From positions 1-64,000 of the IMG/VR virus record IMGVR_UViG_2513237361_000012: DNA of 64,000 nt. One strand, 5' to 3'. The DNA is from a virus (taxonomy: Duplodnaviria > Heunggongvirae > Uroviricota > Caudoviricetes). Made by a program: the position numbers and the translations under genes. The notes beneath the pieces were generated by a model that made no database searches, was not told the origin of the DNA, and saw only the letters and a program-made list of their open reading frames with translations. Numbering within the stretch: the stretch's first letter is position 1; each line of letters opens with the position of its first letter. This document shows, piece after piece, positions 1,978 through 51,342 of the stretch.

Positions 1978-4900
1978 TTACTCAATGCGCATGAACAGAC
2001 ACACATATCCGGTATCTCCACTTGATGTGGTCGACCTGCTCCCTGACAGAGCCTGATAGCGCCCTGGAAATGCTCCATGACGTGGGTCCGCTGCGCAGAA
2101 TTGCGGCGTTGAGACATAATTAGAAGCCTCACTCGCTTTGCAGGTGACAACCAGTGCTCCAAGCCGTGAGCCGGGAACAATATCGCCAAGCCCTATTTTT
2201 TTCTCTTTGTCATCTGCACTGCTCCCCCTGTAAACAGCAAGAATCGGCACACCCACTGCAGGATATTTGTAATATGAGTGCGTGCCGTTGCCCGCCGTCC
2301 TGGACAGCAGGAACGCCAGCGAATCGCCGTCGTAAATAATGGGGCTTACTGTTGCATTCCAGTTGTTTCCACTCCAGCGGTAAGTCAGGCGATGAATACT
2401 GTGCTCACCTTCGTAATACTGGTTAAAACACAGCAGTGTTTTGAATTTACGCGTTGTGTCCGATTCATCGTTATCAAAGGGCGACCACATCACATCAATG
2501 ATGCCGTTAAATTTCGTGGTGCCCGCCAGCAGCGTGGAAGAGTCCGCAATACTGACCGCATAACGCCCCGGCGTGGCCTCTTTCAGCCATTCAGCAAAAT
2601 CGGCCTGTCCGGTAAATGTCAGGGCATCGGTGCTGGTAAATGCCTGACCGAATCCATACATGCCGGACAGCGCCAGCCTGCCTGGTGTGCGGTCGCGGAT
2701 ATCGCTCTGGGGCTCCATCGTAGCAGCCGCTTTCAGCTCAAGCTCCGTGCGCATGGCTTCAGGCGTGTCCAGTGCCAGTAATGCGCGGGCTTTTTCTGAC
2801 AGTTGCGCCAGTAAAATCCGGCCCTCTTCACTGAAATAAGGCAGCGTGTTTTCTTCCGGTATTATCTGGCTGACAGCCGTTAACACGTCATTAAGCGGCT
2901 GTTTACCCGCCAGCGCCTTAGTGACCGTCGTCGCAAAATTAGGGTCGTTGCCCAGCGCCGCTGCCAGTTCGTTCAGCGTATCCAGGGCTTCCGGGGACGA
3001 GTCAACCAGTGCGGCAAGCAGTTTGCGGACAAACTCCGCATTGGCTATTTCATTACCTGCTGCGTCATCTGGCGGGGTTGGTGTTGTCGGTGCTCCGGTC
3101 AGTGCCGGGCTTTTCAGGGGCGCGCGTGCTTCAATCTGTGCAATGAGTGAAGCCTCATCAACCTTCAGGTTTTCCCAGCCAACCAGATAACCACCACCTG
3201 ATGCCACCGCGCAACGGTTATAATAAATATGACCATTAACACCGTAATAAATAATTATCTTATAGGCATACTCATCATTCGGGCTGGTTTTAGGTTGTGG
3301 CCAGATAATTTCAATAACACCGTTTGTCTGTATGCCAGGTACCACCACATTTGTGTCCGCAAATACGGTATAACGACCGGGCTTTGCTGTTTTTACCCAC
3401 CTGAGAAAATCAGTCCCTGATTTAAATTCAATTCTGTCGCTACTGGAAAATATTTTCCCGAAACCGAACATGCCAGGAATCGCCAGTCGGCCTTCGGTGC
3501 GGTCATAAATATTCTCCTGTGCATCCTTTTGTGCTGCATTGCCAAGTTGTGGCGTCAGATTCGTCCAGGTGACCGGGGCGGAGATATTATCGCCACGAAC
3601 GGTCATGAGTATCCGTCCGTCTTTTCCAAAAAACAGAACCAGCTTTGTTGCTGTCTGGCTGGTTTTATCGCCCCAGCCATTATCCAGCCAGATAATTTCT
3701 GTTATTCCGGTGGTTTCTTCCGTTCGCGTGGAAAAGGTGTAATACCGCCCCGGGTGCAGGTTGTGCGCAGTTCTGGCTACAGTCGCCATATCGCTGGCAA
3801 TAATTGAACGCGCTCCGGCGTCCGTCATTCCGTAACCATACGCACCGGGAAGCGCAACACGGCCTTCCGTGCTGTCGTAAAGGTCTGTCTGAATATCCCT
3901 TACCGCTGCGCTTTTCAGCTCAAGCTCATTGCGCATGGCTTCCACTGTGGCCTGTGCCAGCAGTGACCGGGCTTTTTCTGACAGCGGAGACAGTGAAGCA
4001 TTCCCGTCCTGATTAAAGCACAGAAGGTTATCTGCCCGCTCTTCCAGATTGCTGATAGCTGTCAGCACGTCGTTCAGCGGTTGTTTGCCTGCCAGCGCGT
4101 TCATGATTGTTGTCGCAAACTCCGGGTCATTGCCCAGCGCCGCTGCCAGCTCGTTCAGTGTGTCCAGGGCTTCCGGTGACGAGTCAACCAGTGCAGCAAG
4201 CAGTTTGCGGACAAAAGCCGCATTCGCTGTTTCCAGACCGGCAGCATCATCCGGTGGTGTTGGTGTGGTTGGCGTGCCGGTGAACGCCGGGCTGTCCAGT
4301 GGCGCTTTTGTTTTCGTCTCGTCCATGACGGTTTTGACAGCCTTTGGTGTGGCGGCCAGTTCTTCGCTGTCGTTGTCCGTATCACTACAGAGTTGCACCA
4401 GACCTTTTTCTGTCGTGGAAGCATTGCTTCCCTTCAGGTCATCAACTATCCGTTGTGCCTCGTCCCTGTGCTGTTTCGCGCTCTGCTCGCTTTTTGCTGC
4501 CGCTTCGGCGCTGGCTTTTGCCTCGCCGGTCAGCGTTGCTGCTTCACCGAGTTTATCGACCGCTTTCTGGACTATCTTATCGGCATCTTTGACCGCCTGT
4601 TCTGCCCGGGCGGCATTCTGGTTTGTTTCAGAGGCCAGCTCTTCAGCTTTCTGGACATTACTCGCAATTTCTTCTGCATCCTGCCGTATTTCCCCTGCGA
4701 GGGTTTCTGTATCCTGGCGGGCCTGTTCAGCAGCGTCCGCATGCTCTCTGGCTTTTTCTGCGCTTTGCTGCGCCTGTTGCGCCAGTTCCTCGAATTTCTT
4801 CAGGGCTTCCGGGCGCAGGTCAATATCGGTTGCCCCCAGAAAATCATTCAGCGAACCGTCTGTCGAATCTTCATAAACGCGAATGACACCGATTTCTGAA

Positions 4901-41342: not shown

Positions 41343-41918
41343 CTATTTAACATACTTGACTGTTAAACTTATAATTTTACCAATTATTTCAATGTCTTCT
41401 ATCTTGCATTCGAAGGCTCTGTTTCCACCCTCGACGAAGATTCTTCCACCGGGTAAACGAGTAATGTCACGGATCGTTATTTTGCCATCAATACTTATTA
41501 CCCATTTACCATCACGTATATCATCAAATTCCTTATCACAAATAAATTCAGAATTATTATCTGTGATTACAAAAAGATTCTTGAATGCCGACGGTAGAAA
41601 TTCTCTATCGAAAATATAAAAACCGTCTTCACACAAGGCCCCATCAGATAATACATATTTAGCAACTTCCATAGTATTTGTATTACCTGAAGTTTGCTTT
41701 GAACCATGCCCGGTTGTGAGCCAATTAAGCGAGGCGCCTGTTTCAAGGGCGCACTGGATTACCCATTCTGCTGGGAATGAGTCACGCATGTAGCGTGTGG
41801 CGAGTGTACTTTTAGAGATTCCTAAATGATCGCACAACGCCTGTCGAGTCTTGAATCCATAAGCTTCTACCATGCGCTCTATAGCGCCTCGTCCGCCTTT
41901 CTCCAAATTCATGGTCAC
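41343..41918 (-). CDS. cI: Immunity repressor CI (186 type)
   Basis: 191 aa with N-terminal HTH (QALCDHLGISKSTLATRY); position int-cI-apl-cII. Confidence 0.75.
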   Translation of the reverse strand: MTMNLEKGGRGAIERMVEAYGFKTRQALCDHLGISKSTLATRYMRDSFPAEWVIQCALETGASLNWLTTGHGSKQTSGNTNTMEVAKYVLSDGALCEDGFYIFDREFLPSAFKNLFVITDNNSEFICDKEFDDIRDGKWVISIDGKITIRDITRLPGGRIFVEGGNRAFECKIEDIEIIGKIISLTVKYVK

Positions 41919-43842: not shown

Positions 43843-44696
43843 GCACCATTCTGAAATGGGCGGGTAATAAAACCGCCATTATGTCCGAACTGAAAAAATA
43901 CCTTCCTGCTGGCCCGCGACTGGTTGAACCTTTCGCGGGTTCTTGTGCTGTGATGATAGAGACGGATTACCCCAGCTATCTTGTTGCGGATATTAATCCT
44001 GATTTAATCAACCTCTATAAAAAGGTTGCTGCTGATTGCGAGGCGTTTATATCTCGTGCCAGAGCTTTATTTGAGGAAGCAAACAGTGAGCTGGCTTATT
44101 ACAACATAAGGCAGGAGTTTAATTACTCAACTGAAATTACTGATTTCATGAAAGCGGTATATTTCCTGTATCTCAATCGTCACGGTTACCGTGGGTTATG
44201 TCGCTATAACAAGAGCGGGTATTTCAACATTCCCTACGGTAATTATAAAAATCCGTATTTCCCTGAAAAAGAAATTCGCGCATTTGCAGAGAAAGCCCAG
44301 CGATCAACGTTTATCTGCGCCAGCTTTGATGAAACGCTGGCGATGCTGCAGGTGGGGGATGTGGTGTATTGCGATCCGCCTTATGACGGTACGTTTTCCG
44401 GTTATCACACTGACGGCTTCACTGAAGATGACCAGTATCACCTGGCATCCGTTCTTGAACATCGGTCATCAGAAGGACATCCCGTCATTGTTTCTAACAG
44501 TGACACATCCCTGATCCGTTCGCTGTATCGCAATTTTACTCACCACTACATCAAGGCAAAACGCAGCATCAGTGTGGCAGCTGGTGATAGTAAATCTGCA
44601 ACAGAAATCATTGCTGTTTCCGGGGCGCGCTGCTGGGTGGGATTTGATCCTTCGCGTGGCGTAGATAGTTCTGCTGTGTACGAGGTGCGTGTATGA
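43839..44696 (+). CDS. dam: DNA adenine methyltransferase (Dam-like, N6-A MTase)
   Basis: N-terminal KWAGNK...PFAGS (SAM binding) and DPPY catalytic motif. Confidence 0.85.
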
Positions 44697-47107
44697 GTCA
44701 TGACGATATGAGCAACTCTAGCGGCTTTAACGAGGCCGCTGCATCATTTTCATGGAACGGCCCGAAAAAGGCCATTAACCCTTATCTGGACCCGGCGGAA
44801 GTTGCGCCGGAGTCTGCACTTTCAAACCTGATCACTCTGTATGTTGCCGATAACGAGCAGGAACAACTGCGCCGCGAGGCACTGAGTGAGCAGGTCTGGG
44901 AGCGTTATTTCTTTAATGAATCCCGTGATCCTGTCCAGCGCGAAATGGAGCAGGATAAGCTCATTAGCCGGGCAAAGCTGGCGCATGAGCAGCAGCGTTT
45001 TAATCCAGACATGGTCATTCTGGCTGACGTCAACGCCCAGCCTTCCCATATCAGCAAGCCGCTGATGCAACGTATTGAATACTTCAGCAGCTTGGGCAGG
45101 CCAAAGGCTTATTCCCGCTATTTGCGTGAGACGATTAAGCCATGTCTGGAACGACTGGAGCATGTACGCGACAGTCAGCTATCCACTTCTTTTCGCTTTA
45201 TGGCAAGCCATGAAGGGCTGGACGGCCTGCTGATCCTGCCTGAAATGAGTCAGGATCAGGTGAAACGCCTGTCTACCCTTGTCGCTGCGCATATGAGCAT
45301 GTGTCTTGATGCCGCTTGTGGTGATTTGTACGCCACCGATGATGTTAAGCCAGAAGAAATCCGCAAGACATGGGAAAAGGTGGCAGCGGAAACCCTACGT
45401 TTGGATGTCATCCCGCCTGCGTTTGAGCAACTCCGTCGGAAAAGAAACCGCCGTAAACCAGTGCCCTATGAACTCATTCCGGGCTCGCTGGCGCGTATGC
45501 TGTGCGCCGACTGGTGGTATCGGAAATTGTGGAAGATGCGTTGCGAATGGCGGGAAGAGCAGTTGCGTGCTGTCTGCCTGGTCAGCAAAAAAGCATCTCC
45601 CTATGTCAGCTATGAAGCTGTGATGCATAAACGTGAGCAGCGCCGTAAGTCGCTGGAGTTTTTCCGTTCTCATGAACTGGTGAACGAAGACGGAGACGCG
45701 CTGGATATGGAAGATGTGGTAAACGCCAGCTGCAGCAACCCGGCGCATCGCCGCAATGAGATGATGGCCTGTGTTAAAGGTCTGGAGCTTATCGCGGAAA
45801 TGCGCGGTGACTGCGCCGTTTTCTACACCATTACCTGTCCGTCACGTTTCCATTCCACGCTCAATAACGGCAGACCCAACCCGACCTGGAAAAACGCGAC
45901 GGTAAGACAAAGCAGCGATTATCTGGTCGGTATGTTTGCTGCATTTCGTAAGGCGATGCACAAAGCCGGGTTGCGCTGGTATGGCGTGCGGGTGGCTGAG
46001 CCGCATCACGACGGCACAGTTCACTGGCACCTGTTGTGTTTCATGCGCAAAAAAGACCGCCGCGCCATTACTGCATTGTTGCGTAAGTTTGCTATCCGTG
46101 AAGACCGCGAGGAGCTGGGCAATAACACGGGGCCGCGCTTTAAGTCTGAGCTGATTAACCCGCGCAAAGGAACGCCGACAAGCTACATAGCGAAATACAT
46201 CAGTAAGAACATTGACGGGCGTGGTCTGGCTGGCGAGATCAGCAAGGAAACGGGTAAATCTCTTCGTGATAACGCTGAATACGTGAATGCCTGGGCGTCT
46301 TTGCATCGTGTTCAGCAATTCCGCTTCTTTGGTATTCCGGGGCGTCAGGCTTACCGTGAACTGCGATTGCTGGCTGGTCAGGCGGCAAGGCAGCAGGGTG
46401 ACAAAAAAGCAGGTGTGCCGGTACTGGATAACCCGCGCCTTGATGCCATTCTGGCTGCTGCTGATGCTGGTTGTTTTGCCACCTATATCATGAAGCAGGG
46501 AGGTGTACTGGTTCCCCGTAAATATCACCTCATCAGAACCGCTTATGAAATTAACGAAGAGCCGACCGCCTATGGCGATCACGGTATTCGTATTTATGGC
46601 ATCTGGTCACCCATTGCAGAGGGCAAGATCTGCACTCATGCAGTGAAGTGGAAAATGGTTCGTAAGGCCGTTGACGTTCAGGAGGCGGCAGCCGACCAGG
46701 GCGCTTGTGCCCCTTGGACTCGTGGCAATAACTGTCCCCTTGCTGAAAATTTGTACCAACAGGAGAAAGATAAATCAGCTGATGGGGACACCAGAACAGA
46801 CATTACCCGCATGGATGACAAGGAGTTGCACGATTACCTGCACAGTATGAGCAAAAAAGAGCTCCGGGAACTGGCAGCAAGGTTACGCCTGGTTAAGCCG
46901 AAACGGCGTAAAGACTACAAACAGCGAATTACAGATCATCAGCGACAGCAGCTCGTCTATGAACTGAAGTCCAGAGGATTTGATGGCAGCGAGAAAGAGG
47001 TCGATTTACTCCTTCGCGGTGGCAGTATTCCGTCAGGAACAGGCCTGCGTATCTTCTATCGGAACCAGCGTTTGCAGGAAGATGATAAGTGGCGGAACCT
47101 GTATTAA
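44693..47107 (+). CDS. A: Replication initiation endonuclease A (P2/186 gpA family)
   Basis: 804 aa, rolling-circle initiator-like, canonical position after early genes. Confidence 0.8.
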
Positions 47108-47199
47108 TTACGCGGGTTAACAATTCGTGCTCTTAATAATACCAGGCATATCAGGCTGATGAACGTAAAAAAACGTTTTACATCAGTAAGATTATTATA

Positions 47200-47219
47200 T
47201 ACTGTAAATATAAACAGTG
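47200..47219. promoter_or_regulatory. LexA (SOS) box
   Basis: TACTGTAAATATAAACAGTG fits CTGT-N8-ACAG consensus; upstream of DinI/Tum-like gene. Confidence 0.65.
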
Positions 47220-47388
47220 GATATGCATACAGTATTGCTTGTGGTGTCATAGGAGGAAAAATGCAGGACTATTTTTTGGAGTCTTTGAAGCTCCAGCGCA
47301 TTGATTTTTTTTCTTAAGCTTGTAGCGGCTAGTGAGTGTAGTGATGAAGAGAAGGGGCTGGCTTTGCAGTGGGTTTCTGAATTGACTG

Positions 47389-47682
47389 ATGAACTCATGG
47401 CAAAAATCAGAACCCACGAATACAACCGCTCAATGGATGTCATCAGTTGAGGTGACTTTTATGCGCATTGAAATAATGATCGATAAAGAGCAGAAGATTA
47501 GCCAGTCTATCCTGGACGCCCTTGAATCCGAGCTTTACCGCAATTTGCGCCCCCTGTATCCAAAAACGGTAATTCGTATCCGCAAAGGTAGCTCTAACGG
47601 TGTGGAACTGACCGGACTGCAACTGGACGAAAGAAAGGAAGCAAGTGATGAAAATTATGCAGAAGGTGTGGGAAGACGATAG
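47389..47682 (+). CDS. DinI-family protein (Tum-like SOS-inducible factor); start may be at 47461
   Basis: C-terminal about 74 aa (MRIEIMIDKEQ...) resemble DinI family; LexA box upstream as for 186 tum. Confidence 0.55.
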   Translation: MNSWQKSEPTNTTAQWMSSVEVTFMRIEIMIDKEQKISQSILDALESELYRNLRPLYPKTVIRIRKGSSNGVELTGLQLDERKEASDENYAEGVGRR

Positions 47683-47870
47683 CTGGCTGCATTAAGAAAC
47701 GTTGCCCCCAGTAGGGTTCATTCTGATGGGGGCTAGTTTGAGCAACGAGTGAAACGAGGCGTTAGGTGGGAGGCCATTTTGATAAGTTATCACCCACTTT
47801 ATACCAATAACAGAACTGCGTAATAACTATTTACCTCGGGGGGGAGATGTGAGCCATACAAATTTCAGTA

Positions 47871-48929
47871 TTAATTTTCAATTCCCTCCATTTTACAATG
47901 AGTTTTTTCCCAGAACTGTAATACAACAGGACTAGCCCACTCTGGCATCAGTGCGTTATTTAAAAAACTGAAAACATCATGAGACGCATCAGCATTTTTT
48001 CTAAGGAATTTCCAGCCTTTTCTAGTATTTATCTCAACAATACCTAACCCACCATCATCAAACATATGCATCTTGAATTCAGGATTGTTTACACCTAGAG
48101 ATTTTATTTCTTTTATGTATGGACTATCTTCATCCATAAATATTTTCTCTATGTGCTTAGCACAATGATATATTTTATTTCGATAAGTTGATACGCTCAC
48201 AGCGGTACGCGCTGTTGTTATTCCCATTCCTAATGGGGCATATGCTTTTCCATCCATCACTACGGGCAGATTTATTCCATTTTTTCTTAAGTTTGCAATA
48301 TCTGAATCTGTAGTTGGATGAATACAAGCTAAGCCTGAAATACCTTTCATTTCAAATATTTCTGCTGCTTCTGGCCAGTTGCGTATGAATGTTTCTACCA
48401 AATCTCTTTGAGAAAAAAGATTTGGTTCTATGTTTTTATCATGATGTTTTATATCAATAAAAAGCACAGCGTTTGAGTACACCTTCAGGAATAATACCCA
48501 CTCAGCACGATCTGAGTATTTTTTACTTGAACTTACTGGATTTAATGGCAGATGGAGGTGATGAATCCCCCAATCAGCCCATAGGTTATCCGTTCTTTTC
48601 GTCGCCTTTTTACCGCTTGTGTCATTGAATAATGTTAATGTTTTACTCTGATAAGGATTTACATCACCACCAGTAGTAAACAACATCTCGATTCTCTGCA
48701 ATCCAACCCTTGCGCCATCGTGAATATTTTCAGGAAATCGATCTGATTTTAAAATTATTCGTTTTTGTGGAACAATGTAGCGTAAAAGAAAATCACACCA
48801 CCTCAGTAGAGGATCGTGAAGATTTGAGTGCCCGGATTCATCATATAATAACCCAAATGCTTGAATTCCCTTCTCTGAAATTTCGTCAATATCTTTGATT
48901 AGATTAATATTTTTTCGTGCGTCCAACAT
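47871..48929 (-). CDS. Hypothetical 352-aa protein, accessory cargo
   Basis: Long uninterrupted AT-rich ORF between tum-like gene and cos/retron; no family recognised by eye. Confidence 0.6.
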   Translation of the reverse strand: MLDARKNINLIKDIDEISEKGIQAFGLLYDESGHSNLHDPLLRWCDFLLRYIVPQKRIILKSDRFPENIHDGARVGLQRIEMLFTTGGDVNPYQSKTLTLFNDTSGKKATKRTDNLWADWGIHHLHLPLNPVSSSKKYSDRAEWVLFLKVYSNAVLFIDIKHHDKNIEPNLFSQRDLVETFIRNWPEAAEIFEMKGISGLACIHPTTDSDIANLRKNGINLPVVMDGKAYAPLGMGITTARTAVSVSTYRNKIYHCAKHIEKIFMDEDSPYIKEIKSLGVNNPEFKMHMFDDGGLGIVEINTRKGWKFLRKNADASHDVFSFLNNALMPEWASPVVLQFWEKTHCKMEGIEN

Positions 48930-49323
48930 ACTAACTCCGTTTAAATATAATTTTTTAGTATTTCAGTTAATTAATATCTATACGCCGTTATAGCTGAATT
49001 TTCCGGTGATTTCAGGGCACATTAACCAATTTAGATAATACTATAGTAATGGTTGGGCTGATTTTTCAAGAACAAAAGTAATTTTCAAGCTTTGTAACAT
49101 GTTGATTTTCCACTTTTCGCTCAAGCGAGCTTTCATCTTTGCAAGCCCATATGTTCGTTTTTCAAGCGATTATTCAGATACGTTAACTTCCCATGGCAGT
49201 GCATGACTATGCTGCATGAAATCGCATGATCGATCGAGGATCGTCTATGCTTAGACCAGCCAGAAATGGCGGGCTTTTGCTCATGTCATGCAGCTGCATG
49301 AAAACCACTGCATAAAGTGGGCA

Positions 49324-49342
49324 GGCGTGGCGGGGATACGAG
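49324..49342. other. cos-like cohesive-end site
   Basis: GGCGTGGCGGGGA matches the first 13 nt of the 186/P2 cos sequence as I recall it; position between A-side genes and Q. Confidence 0.4.
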
Positions 49343-49412
49343 GGCGCGCTATCACGTAAAATAGGCAAAATACTTCTGGAAAACAGAAAGTTGAAGTGAT
49401 ATGTTCATAAAC

Positions 49413-51342
<1,930 letters not shown>

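Follow-up and report, generated by a model that had tools for sequence, protein, structure and literature searches.

The 64,000-nucleotide stretch of DNA analysed here (hereafter the window) corresponds to positions 1 to 64,000 of the IMG/VR virus record IMGVR_UViG_2513237361_000012 and carries, at 47155-47733, a compact group of elements that sequence comparison identifies, very probably, as an SOS operon, in the split tumA-tumB form, belonging to a Fels-2/186-like (Peduoviridae) prophage. A promoter with a predicted LexA operator precedes two small genes, tumA, encoding a homologue of the Tum antirepressors, and tumB, encoding a member of the DinI family. The combination of a LexA-repressed promoter, an antirepressor and a DinI-like gene is a switch already known from phages 186, Fels-2 and PSP3, and the current understanding of SOS-linked induction is unchanged by our findings; the locus brings only small additions, namely frameshifts, a colicin-like double operator and a relation between TumA and the N-terminal domain of the CI repressor. 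The elements are the following (nt, nucleotides; aa, amino acids; RBS, ribosome-binding site).

47155-47187, plus strand: hairpin after the gpA stop (47107), overlapping the -35 element; -12.2 kcal/mol, z = -5.05, none of 200 shuffles as stable
47177-47205, plus strand: putative sigma-70 promoter, equivalent of 186 p95; -35 TTTACA at 47177-47182, 17-nt spacer, -10 TACTGT at 47200-47205
47200-47219, strand not applicable: SOS (LexA) box 1, TACTGTAAATATAAACAGTG, overlapping the -10 hexamer; 17 of 20 consensus matches
47215-47234, strand not applicable: SOS box 2 (degenerate), CAGTGGATATGCATACAGTA; 15 of 20 matches, 5-bp overlap with box 1
47251-47256, plus strand: tumA RBS, AGGAGG, kept as (T)AGGAGG in related loci
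47261-47450, plus strand: tumA, 62-aa antirepressor homologue, frameshifted in the window
47305-47312, plus strand: T8 run, T7 in the closest relatives aligned; the +1 breaks tumA at codons 16-18
47449-47455, plus strand: tumB RBS, GAGGTGA, overlapping the tumA stop TGA at 47448-47450
47461-47695, plus strand: tumB, 77-aa DinI-family protein, frameshifted in the window
47630-47632, plus strand: AAA where relatives have AA; the extra base throws tumB out of frame after codon 56
47704-47733, plus strand: GC-rich hairpin with a weak U-tail, after tumB; -20 kcal/mol, z = -2.87
41343-41918, minus strand: cI, 186-type immunity repressor, presumed target of TumA

The closest copy of this prophage is found in E. 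coli NCTC8623 (99.9% identical over the shared 22.6 kb), where the annotated order is cI, cII, fil, dam, a replication endonuclease, a 62-aa hypothetical protein and a 77-aa DinI-like family protein, followed by an opposite-strand 352-aa gene, a retron Ec67 reverse transcriptase (RT) and then the portal and terminase genes. From the presence of the 62-aa and the DinI-like genes in this annotation it follows that two genes, and not one, lie downstream of the LexA box. The replication endonuclease is the counterpart of gpA of the window (44693-47107), which is placed upstream of tumA here and in 25 of 33 species loci, a set that we drew from species-representative genomes with one locus per species. 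The region 47100-47800 is present in 1125 of 5426 complete E. coli genomes.

The initial annotation had described the locus as a 186-Tum-like SOS induction module made of an SOS box and a DinI-like gene; its general idea agrees with our data, which point to LexA control in a P2/186-family prophage, whereas the gene model and the roles given to the parts were wrong and tumA was missed. The box does lie upstream of the DinI-like gene, but some 240 nt away, with tumA, its AGGAGG and its ATG at 47261 in between. The 97-aa open reading frame (ORF; 47389-47682) then proposed as the gene is purely mechanical and an artefact, as the relatives start at the equivalent of 47461 and encode 77 aa; the alternative of a gene of about 74 aa from the ATG at 47461 has the correct start and a genuine DinI match, but the 73 aa found in the window are due to a 1-nt insertion. 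The two +1 insertions listed above are the cause both of these odd ORFs and of the shortened DinI match. The source annotation of the window likewise has no tumA call and only a truncated DinI gene, and the gene model given here corrects it. Two minus-strand ORFs, 47195-47443 and 47104-47250, were considered as genes and rejected, since relatives differ by substitutions that are silent when read in the plus-strand frames of tumA and tumB.

The near-consensus SOS box reported initially is exactly placed: CTGTAAATATAAACAG occupies 47202-47217 (CTGT-N8-ACAG). Taken alone, this bare motif is not significant, with one occurrence in 64 kb for 0.71 expected and at least one in 49 of 100 shuffled sequences. 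The 20-mer of box 1 is the sole site with three mismatches or fewer to the LexA consensus in the window, and none of the 100 shuffles gives one; it fits the palindrome TACTGT-(AT)4-ACAGTA, with the CTG and CAG triplets intact and 10 nt apart, and is located 42 nt ahead of the tumA ATG, overlapping the -10 TACTGT. This placement is conserved: each of the 11 phage and prophage loci compared (the window included, with 186, PSP3, Fels-2, ESSI-2 and Yersinia phages) has a LexA box ahead of tumA, at a distance of 38-96 nt. A box with at least 15 of 20 matches is present in 31 of the 33 species loci, though the flanks diverge; the two loci that lack it are one situated at a contig end and one with a decayed tumA. 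The latter belongs to Siccibacter turicensis, in which tumA breaks off after 20 codons and no LexA box precedes it, an independent case of decay of the module. The Pantoea/Erwinia group has a short leader and a single box.

Together, boxes 1 and 2 form a composite, CTGT-N9-CAGTG-N10-CAGT (47202-47233), that is found in 19 of the 33 species loci as well as in Fels-2, Kp ST13phi12.1, YpM_MLG42 and E. coli prophages. The same composite is carried by the ColE1 colicin E1 operator, TGCTGTATATAAAACCAGTGGTTATATGTACAGTA, which is identical to the Fels-2 version at 32 of 36 positions (manual count) and differs in controlling a plasmid colicin gene and not a prophage antirepressor. Colicin operators with two overlapping boxes are bound by two LexA dimers, which keeps a lethal function very tightly repressed (PMC2994835), and we infer that the tum double box would also bind two LexA dimers and be tightly repressed. 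This double nature of the operator, like both frameshifts, had been overlooked initially.

The putative promoter was recognised from its resemblance to 186 p95 and from its conservation. Its layout is that of the annotated p95 of phage 186, the -10 TACTGT of which also falls within the LexA site, and TTTACA or a one-base variant is found about 17 nt before TACTGT in most of 35 aligned loci, while the sequence of the spacer varies; loci of the Pantoea/Erwinia type deviate from this -35 pattern. The hairpin at 47155-47187 is not followed by a U-tract; it may terminate early lytic transcription or insulate the SOS promoter from it. Terminator-like palindromes ahead of LexA boxes have been described for the SOS operons of the Gifsy prophages (Lemire et al., PMC3121763). 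At the other end, the hairpin at 47704-47733 probably terminates the operon in a manner comparable to t95a of phage 186, a partial terminator annotated at the equivalent position of the 186 record, and the next gene, a PD-T4-7 homologue, is on the opposite strand.

As written, tumA meets a stop at 47317 after 18 codons (MQDYFLESLKLQRIDFFS followed by the stop), while relatives encode a full 62-aa protein (WP_001154434) and the gene is intact in NCTC8623 and FDAARGOS_497; with respect to the latter, the window has three substitutions in tumA, all of them synonymous in the tumA frame. Once repaired, TumA is 98.4% identical to STM2728 of Fels-2, belongs to phrog_698 (E=3.6e-38) and has a weak match to phrog_1993 (E=0.0022), to which PSP3 TumA belongs. 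Residues 1-70 of 186 Tum, for their part, match phrog_1993, phrog_8554 and phrog_698, the last at 6.7e-6. An hhalign comparison between a profile of 21 diverse TumA members and one composed of the N-terminal part of 186 Tum (Tum-N), PSP3 TumA and the Yersinia 'tum' gave a probability of 96.95% (E=1.3e-10), with residues 5-43 aligned on residues 5-43. Pfam has no family for TumA. For this acidic protein AlphaFold2 predicts, with confidence, a two-helix hairpin (predicted local distance difference test, pLDDT, 89.3); the PDB structures that Foldseek retrieved for it were generic helical hairpins, all above E=0.001. TumA thus shares with the Tum/TumA family homology to Tum-N, a predicted LexA operator directly upstream that overlaps the promoter, and a position after gpA in a prophage with a 186-type CI; the intact ORF of about 60 aa is lacking in the window because of the T8 run, possibly through a sequencing error. 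TumA is on these grounds a likely member of the family and the likely antirepressor of this operon. In GenBank and UniRef its homologues are labelled 'hypothetical protein' or 'levan regulatory (domain) protein'.

The second gene, tumB, starts 9-12 nt after the tumA stop in 18 of the 20 loci that carry it. Repaired TumB matches the Pfam DinI family (PF06183) over profile positions 1-63 with E=1.3e-22 and 80.4 bits (cut-off 24.2). The protein as written, ending at 47682 after 73 aa with a wrong C-terminus, matches it over positions 1-48 of 63 only (E=1.5e-11, 44.9 bits). The alignments to 186 Tum and to DinI proposed in the initial annotation were run: repaired TumB and the C-terminal 76 aa of Tum share 41% identity, and phmmer relates TumB to E. 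coli DinI (1GHH) at E=3.6e-6. By eye, it also closely resembles PSP3 TumB. The E. coli DinI match, a distant one, extends from end to end, including the C-terminal W-E-x-x-D-W helix region, whereas TumB as written in the window lacks the C-terminal acidic helix (...VMKIMQKVWEDDSWLH) that is present in all relatives examined; in DinI, this helix is said to contact RecA. The gene is absent from 13 of the 33 species loci, which keep tumA and the LexA box, and ESSI-2, ESSI2_ev015 and Yersinia vB_YenM_06.16-2 similarly have a LexA box and a tumA homologue and no DinI-like gene. It follows from these loci and phages that tumB is dispensable for the core design, and TumB is probably an optional accessory that modulates RecA filaments and hence the strength or the duration of the SOS signal.

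In Fels-2 (STM2728/STM2726.1) and PSP3 (tumA/tumB) the same succession is found as in the window: after gpA, an upstream LexA box, a gene of 60-62 aa and a DinI-family gene of 77 aa, STM2726.1 being annotated as similar to PSP3 TumB. The gap between the two genes is 3 nt in PSP3 and 10 nt in Fels-2; Fels-2 has a double box like the window and PSP3 a single one, and PSP3 TumA falls in phrog 1993 while TumA of the window falls in 698. In Fels-2 the next gene is of orf97 size, whereas in the window it is the minus-strand PD-T4-7 gene followed by the retron Ec67, and only the window has +1 insertions in both genes. Phage 186 has in common with the window a LexA-repressed promoter with its -10 TACTGT in the box and a 186-type CI as target. 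Its Tum (146 aa) unites an N-terminal part homologous to TumA and the C-terminal part related to TumB in one ORF with internal starts, whereas the window has a separate gene for each, in different frames; 186 also differs by a single box and by orf97 downstream. The antirepressors and repressors of the Gifsy prophages are, to our knowledge, unrelated to TumA or to 186-type CI. Gifsy-1/2/3 (dinI homologue, gfoA/gftA antirepressor, irsA) nevertheless resemble the window in having a palindrome-preceded LexA box and an antirepressor co-transcribed with a DinI homologue, with the order reversed, dinI being first (PMC3121763). In that paper, 186 Tum is said to look like an antirepressor fused to DinI, and tum to be split in two in Fels-2 and PSP3 (PMC3121763).

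The CI protein of the window is 33% identical to 186 CI and consists of the Pfam domains Phage_CI_repr (PF07022, 3.1e-33) and Phage_CI_C (PF16452, 1.9e-27), with no S24 peptidase domain. Since CI has no autocleavage domain, induction is expected to proceed through cleavage of LexA, then TumA, then inactivation of CI. In phage 186, SOS derepression of the LexA-repressed p95 leads to the production of Tum, which sequesters CI (PMC7708051). In a lysogen carrying an intact module, LexA dimers on the double SOS box would cover the -10 and the transcription start and keep the p95-like promoter shut, a step for which we rely on the sequence, its conservation and the precedents of ColE1 and 186. On DNA damage, RecA* would trigger self-cleavage of LexA, the promoter would fire and TumA and TumB would be made. 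TumA, by homology to 186 Tum and PSP3 TumA, would bind the 186-type CI and block its binding to the operators, so that the lytic promoter is derepressed and lytic development begins, and TumB, as a member of the DinI family, would modulate RecA filaments. The locus would in this way explain the induction route of a prophage carrying a retron and PD-T4-7, which would depend on a LexA-controlled antirepressor and not on repressor cleavage, and TumA homologues would be the likely induction trigger in about one fifth of complete E. coli genomes.

Where TumA is 98-100% identical between phages, overall CI identity is only 41-55%, at 60-83% in the N-terminal domain and 27-56% in the C-terminal domain. 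In a descriptive comparison of 36 non-independent pairs, TumA identity follows the identity of the CI N-terminal domain (Spearman 0.71) and not that of the C-terminal domain (0.24). This suggests that TumA contacts the DNA-binding domain of CI, and an acidic two-helix hairpin would fit a DNA-mimic mode of binding. A tentative extension, to which we give rather less than even credit, is that TumA could be a generalist antirepressor recognising the conserved N-terminal DNA-binding domain of 186-type CIs, a single type of TumA then serving phages with divergent CIs. If so, SOS derepression of one tumA could cross-induce co-resident P2/186-like prophages of different immunity. In PSP3, CI (286 aa; positions 2219-3079 of locus L007) has two tandem N-terminal helix-turn-helix domains, where the others, including those of 186 and the window, have one.

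Several observations weigh against the reading of the locus as a working SOS operon with TumA as its antirepressor. As the sequence stands, neither tumA nor tumB yields a full-length product. A strict consensus promoter scan called nothing, the -10 hexamer being poor, because TACTGT matches TATAAT at only 3 of 6 positions; in box 2 a GTG replaces the canonical CTG of the left arm. Pairwise BLASTP of TumA against 186 Tum returned nothing, the link existing only at the profile level (PHROG and hhalign), and the attribution of the PSP3 antirepressor activity to the upstream gene goes back to a personal communication cited second-hand (PMC3121763). It could be argued that the palindrome is chance AT-rich sequence and that the genes, unconnected with SOS, are constitutive or read as part of early lytic transcription, as the expected frequency of the bare motif and the failure of the promoter scan would allow. 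The uniqueness of the 20-mer and its absence from the shuffles, the maintenance of the box in 31 of 33 species while the flanks diverge, and the fact that the homologous site of 186 belongs to the LexA-regulated p95 speak against this explanation, which the conservation data effectively refute and to which we attach almost no probability. A different division of labour, put forward initially, would make the DinI-like protein itself a shortened antirepressor that triggers induction, and its homology to the C-terminal half of 186 Tum and its position under a LexA-controlled promoter are in keeping with such a role. Against it, the activity maps to the upstream gene in PSP3, according to the same paper, and deleting the dinI homologues left the induction of the Gifsy prophages unaffected (PMC3121763); of the DinI-like product of the internal start, the 186 record says only that it 'modulates SOS induction', and the box and tumA occur without a DinI gene in the 13 loci and several phages mentioned above. 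That TumB is the antirepressor is therefore very improbable, and we regard it as the accessory DinI half of the pair, with TumA as the likely antirepressor.

The frameshifts were called by alignment with NCTC8623 and FDAARGOS_497. The insertion in tumB replaces the last 20 residues by out-of-frame residues. Over the 22.6 kb shared with NCTC8623 there are 6 substitutions and 3 indels, all the indels being +1 extensions of runs; the third changes T6 to T7 at 49556-49562, 26 nt upstream of the start codon of the retron RT (49582). In NCTC8623, this last position falls inside a longer ORF annotated by PGAP as the RT. At >=99%, the T8 version has no match in 1097 E. coli records and the AAA version of tumB has none in 552, and the exact T8 string is absent from 185,579 species-representative genomes. 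The exact 73-aa TumB product occurs on only one public contig, AEME01000001.1 (GCA_000208565.2), of Escherichia sp. TW09308, a strain of cryptic clade V from Michigan freshwater (PMC7716201). Two ways of restoring tumA were considered and rejected: the T8 run as a phase-variable switch or as a site rescued by transcriptional slippage is unsupported, T8 being found in none of the 1097 E. coli records, and a product reinitiated at TTG 47301 would be without the nearly invariant D3, E7, Q12, R13 and I14.

If both insertions are genuine, a prophage carrying defence genes (retron Ec67, PD-T4-7) has lost its SOS switch and is locked in lysogeny, a form of domestication; the switch would be dead and the lysogen unable to release phage on DNA damage. 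We give this a chance slightly short of even. Loss of inducibility is plausibly beneficial, 186 tum mutants are reportedly not inducible by UV, the T7 tract is a spot naturally prone to slippage, and a decayed tumA without a LexA box exists in another species (Siccibacter); moreover, the frameshifted product is present in a deposited 4.8-Mb contig that has reached assembly version 2. Two of the three indels of the 22.6 kb fall within the 435-nt operon (P ~0.001 under uniform placement), which could be counted in favour of mutation, but such clustering is equally odd under the sequencing-error and the mutation models. On the other side, three indels out of three extend existing runs by +1 against only 6 substitutions, which is typical of homopolymer over-calls, in an assembly, presumably 454-based, that dates from about 2011; the insertions occur in none of about 1100 (tumA) and 550 (tumB) E. 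coli records, and the hit in tumA would suffice alone, leaving the second, in tumB, without obvious selective reason in a prophage otherwise 99.97% identical. That the insertions are homopolymer sequencing errors, in which case the module would be intact and match that of NCTC8623 exactly, is about equally likely and perhaps slightly more so, and we lean slightly towards error because each indel lengthens a run and the indel-to-substitution ratio is 1:2.

Directly beyond the tum operon lies a defence hotspot. It comprises the PD-T4-7 homologue (47871-48929, minus strand; PADLOC E=8.8e-144) and a retron Ec67-type RT-Toprim gene of type I-C (49582-51342, plus strand; E=4e-217). FDAARGOS_497 has the same PD-T4-7 gene followed by a DUF262 gene in place of the retron. 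An Rfam search of 46500-50500 found no RNA family and no msr/msd family. At 38837-39820 (minus strand), beside the prophage integrase, a DUF4917/SIR2-like protein has a match (E=8.8e-122) to PDC-S21, a candidate defence system in PADLOC.

The window also contains, at 307-36250, a Mu-like prophage of about 36 kb inserted in ybjI, with a DUF935 portal, a sheath and Mor, and with Mom/Com in its relatives; positions 1-306 and 36251 onward are contiguous in NCTC8623. Relative to relatives that are 96-97% identical, this prophage has isolated 1-nt indels (e.g. 10351 and 21879) that appear, by ORF lengths, to truncate the DNA-circularization and portal genes. The chromosomal flank at 36251-41114 (ybjI to rcdA) is 94.5% identical to NCTC8623, compared with 99.9% for the Fels-2/186-like prophage at 41100-63681, and, the host being of clade V, this difference points to a recent exchange of the prophage between Escherichia lineages.

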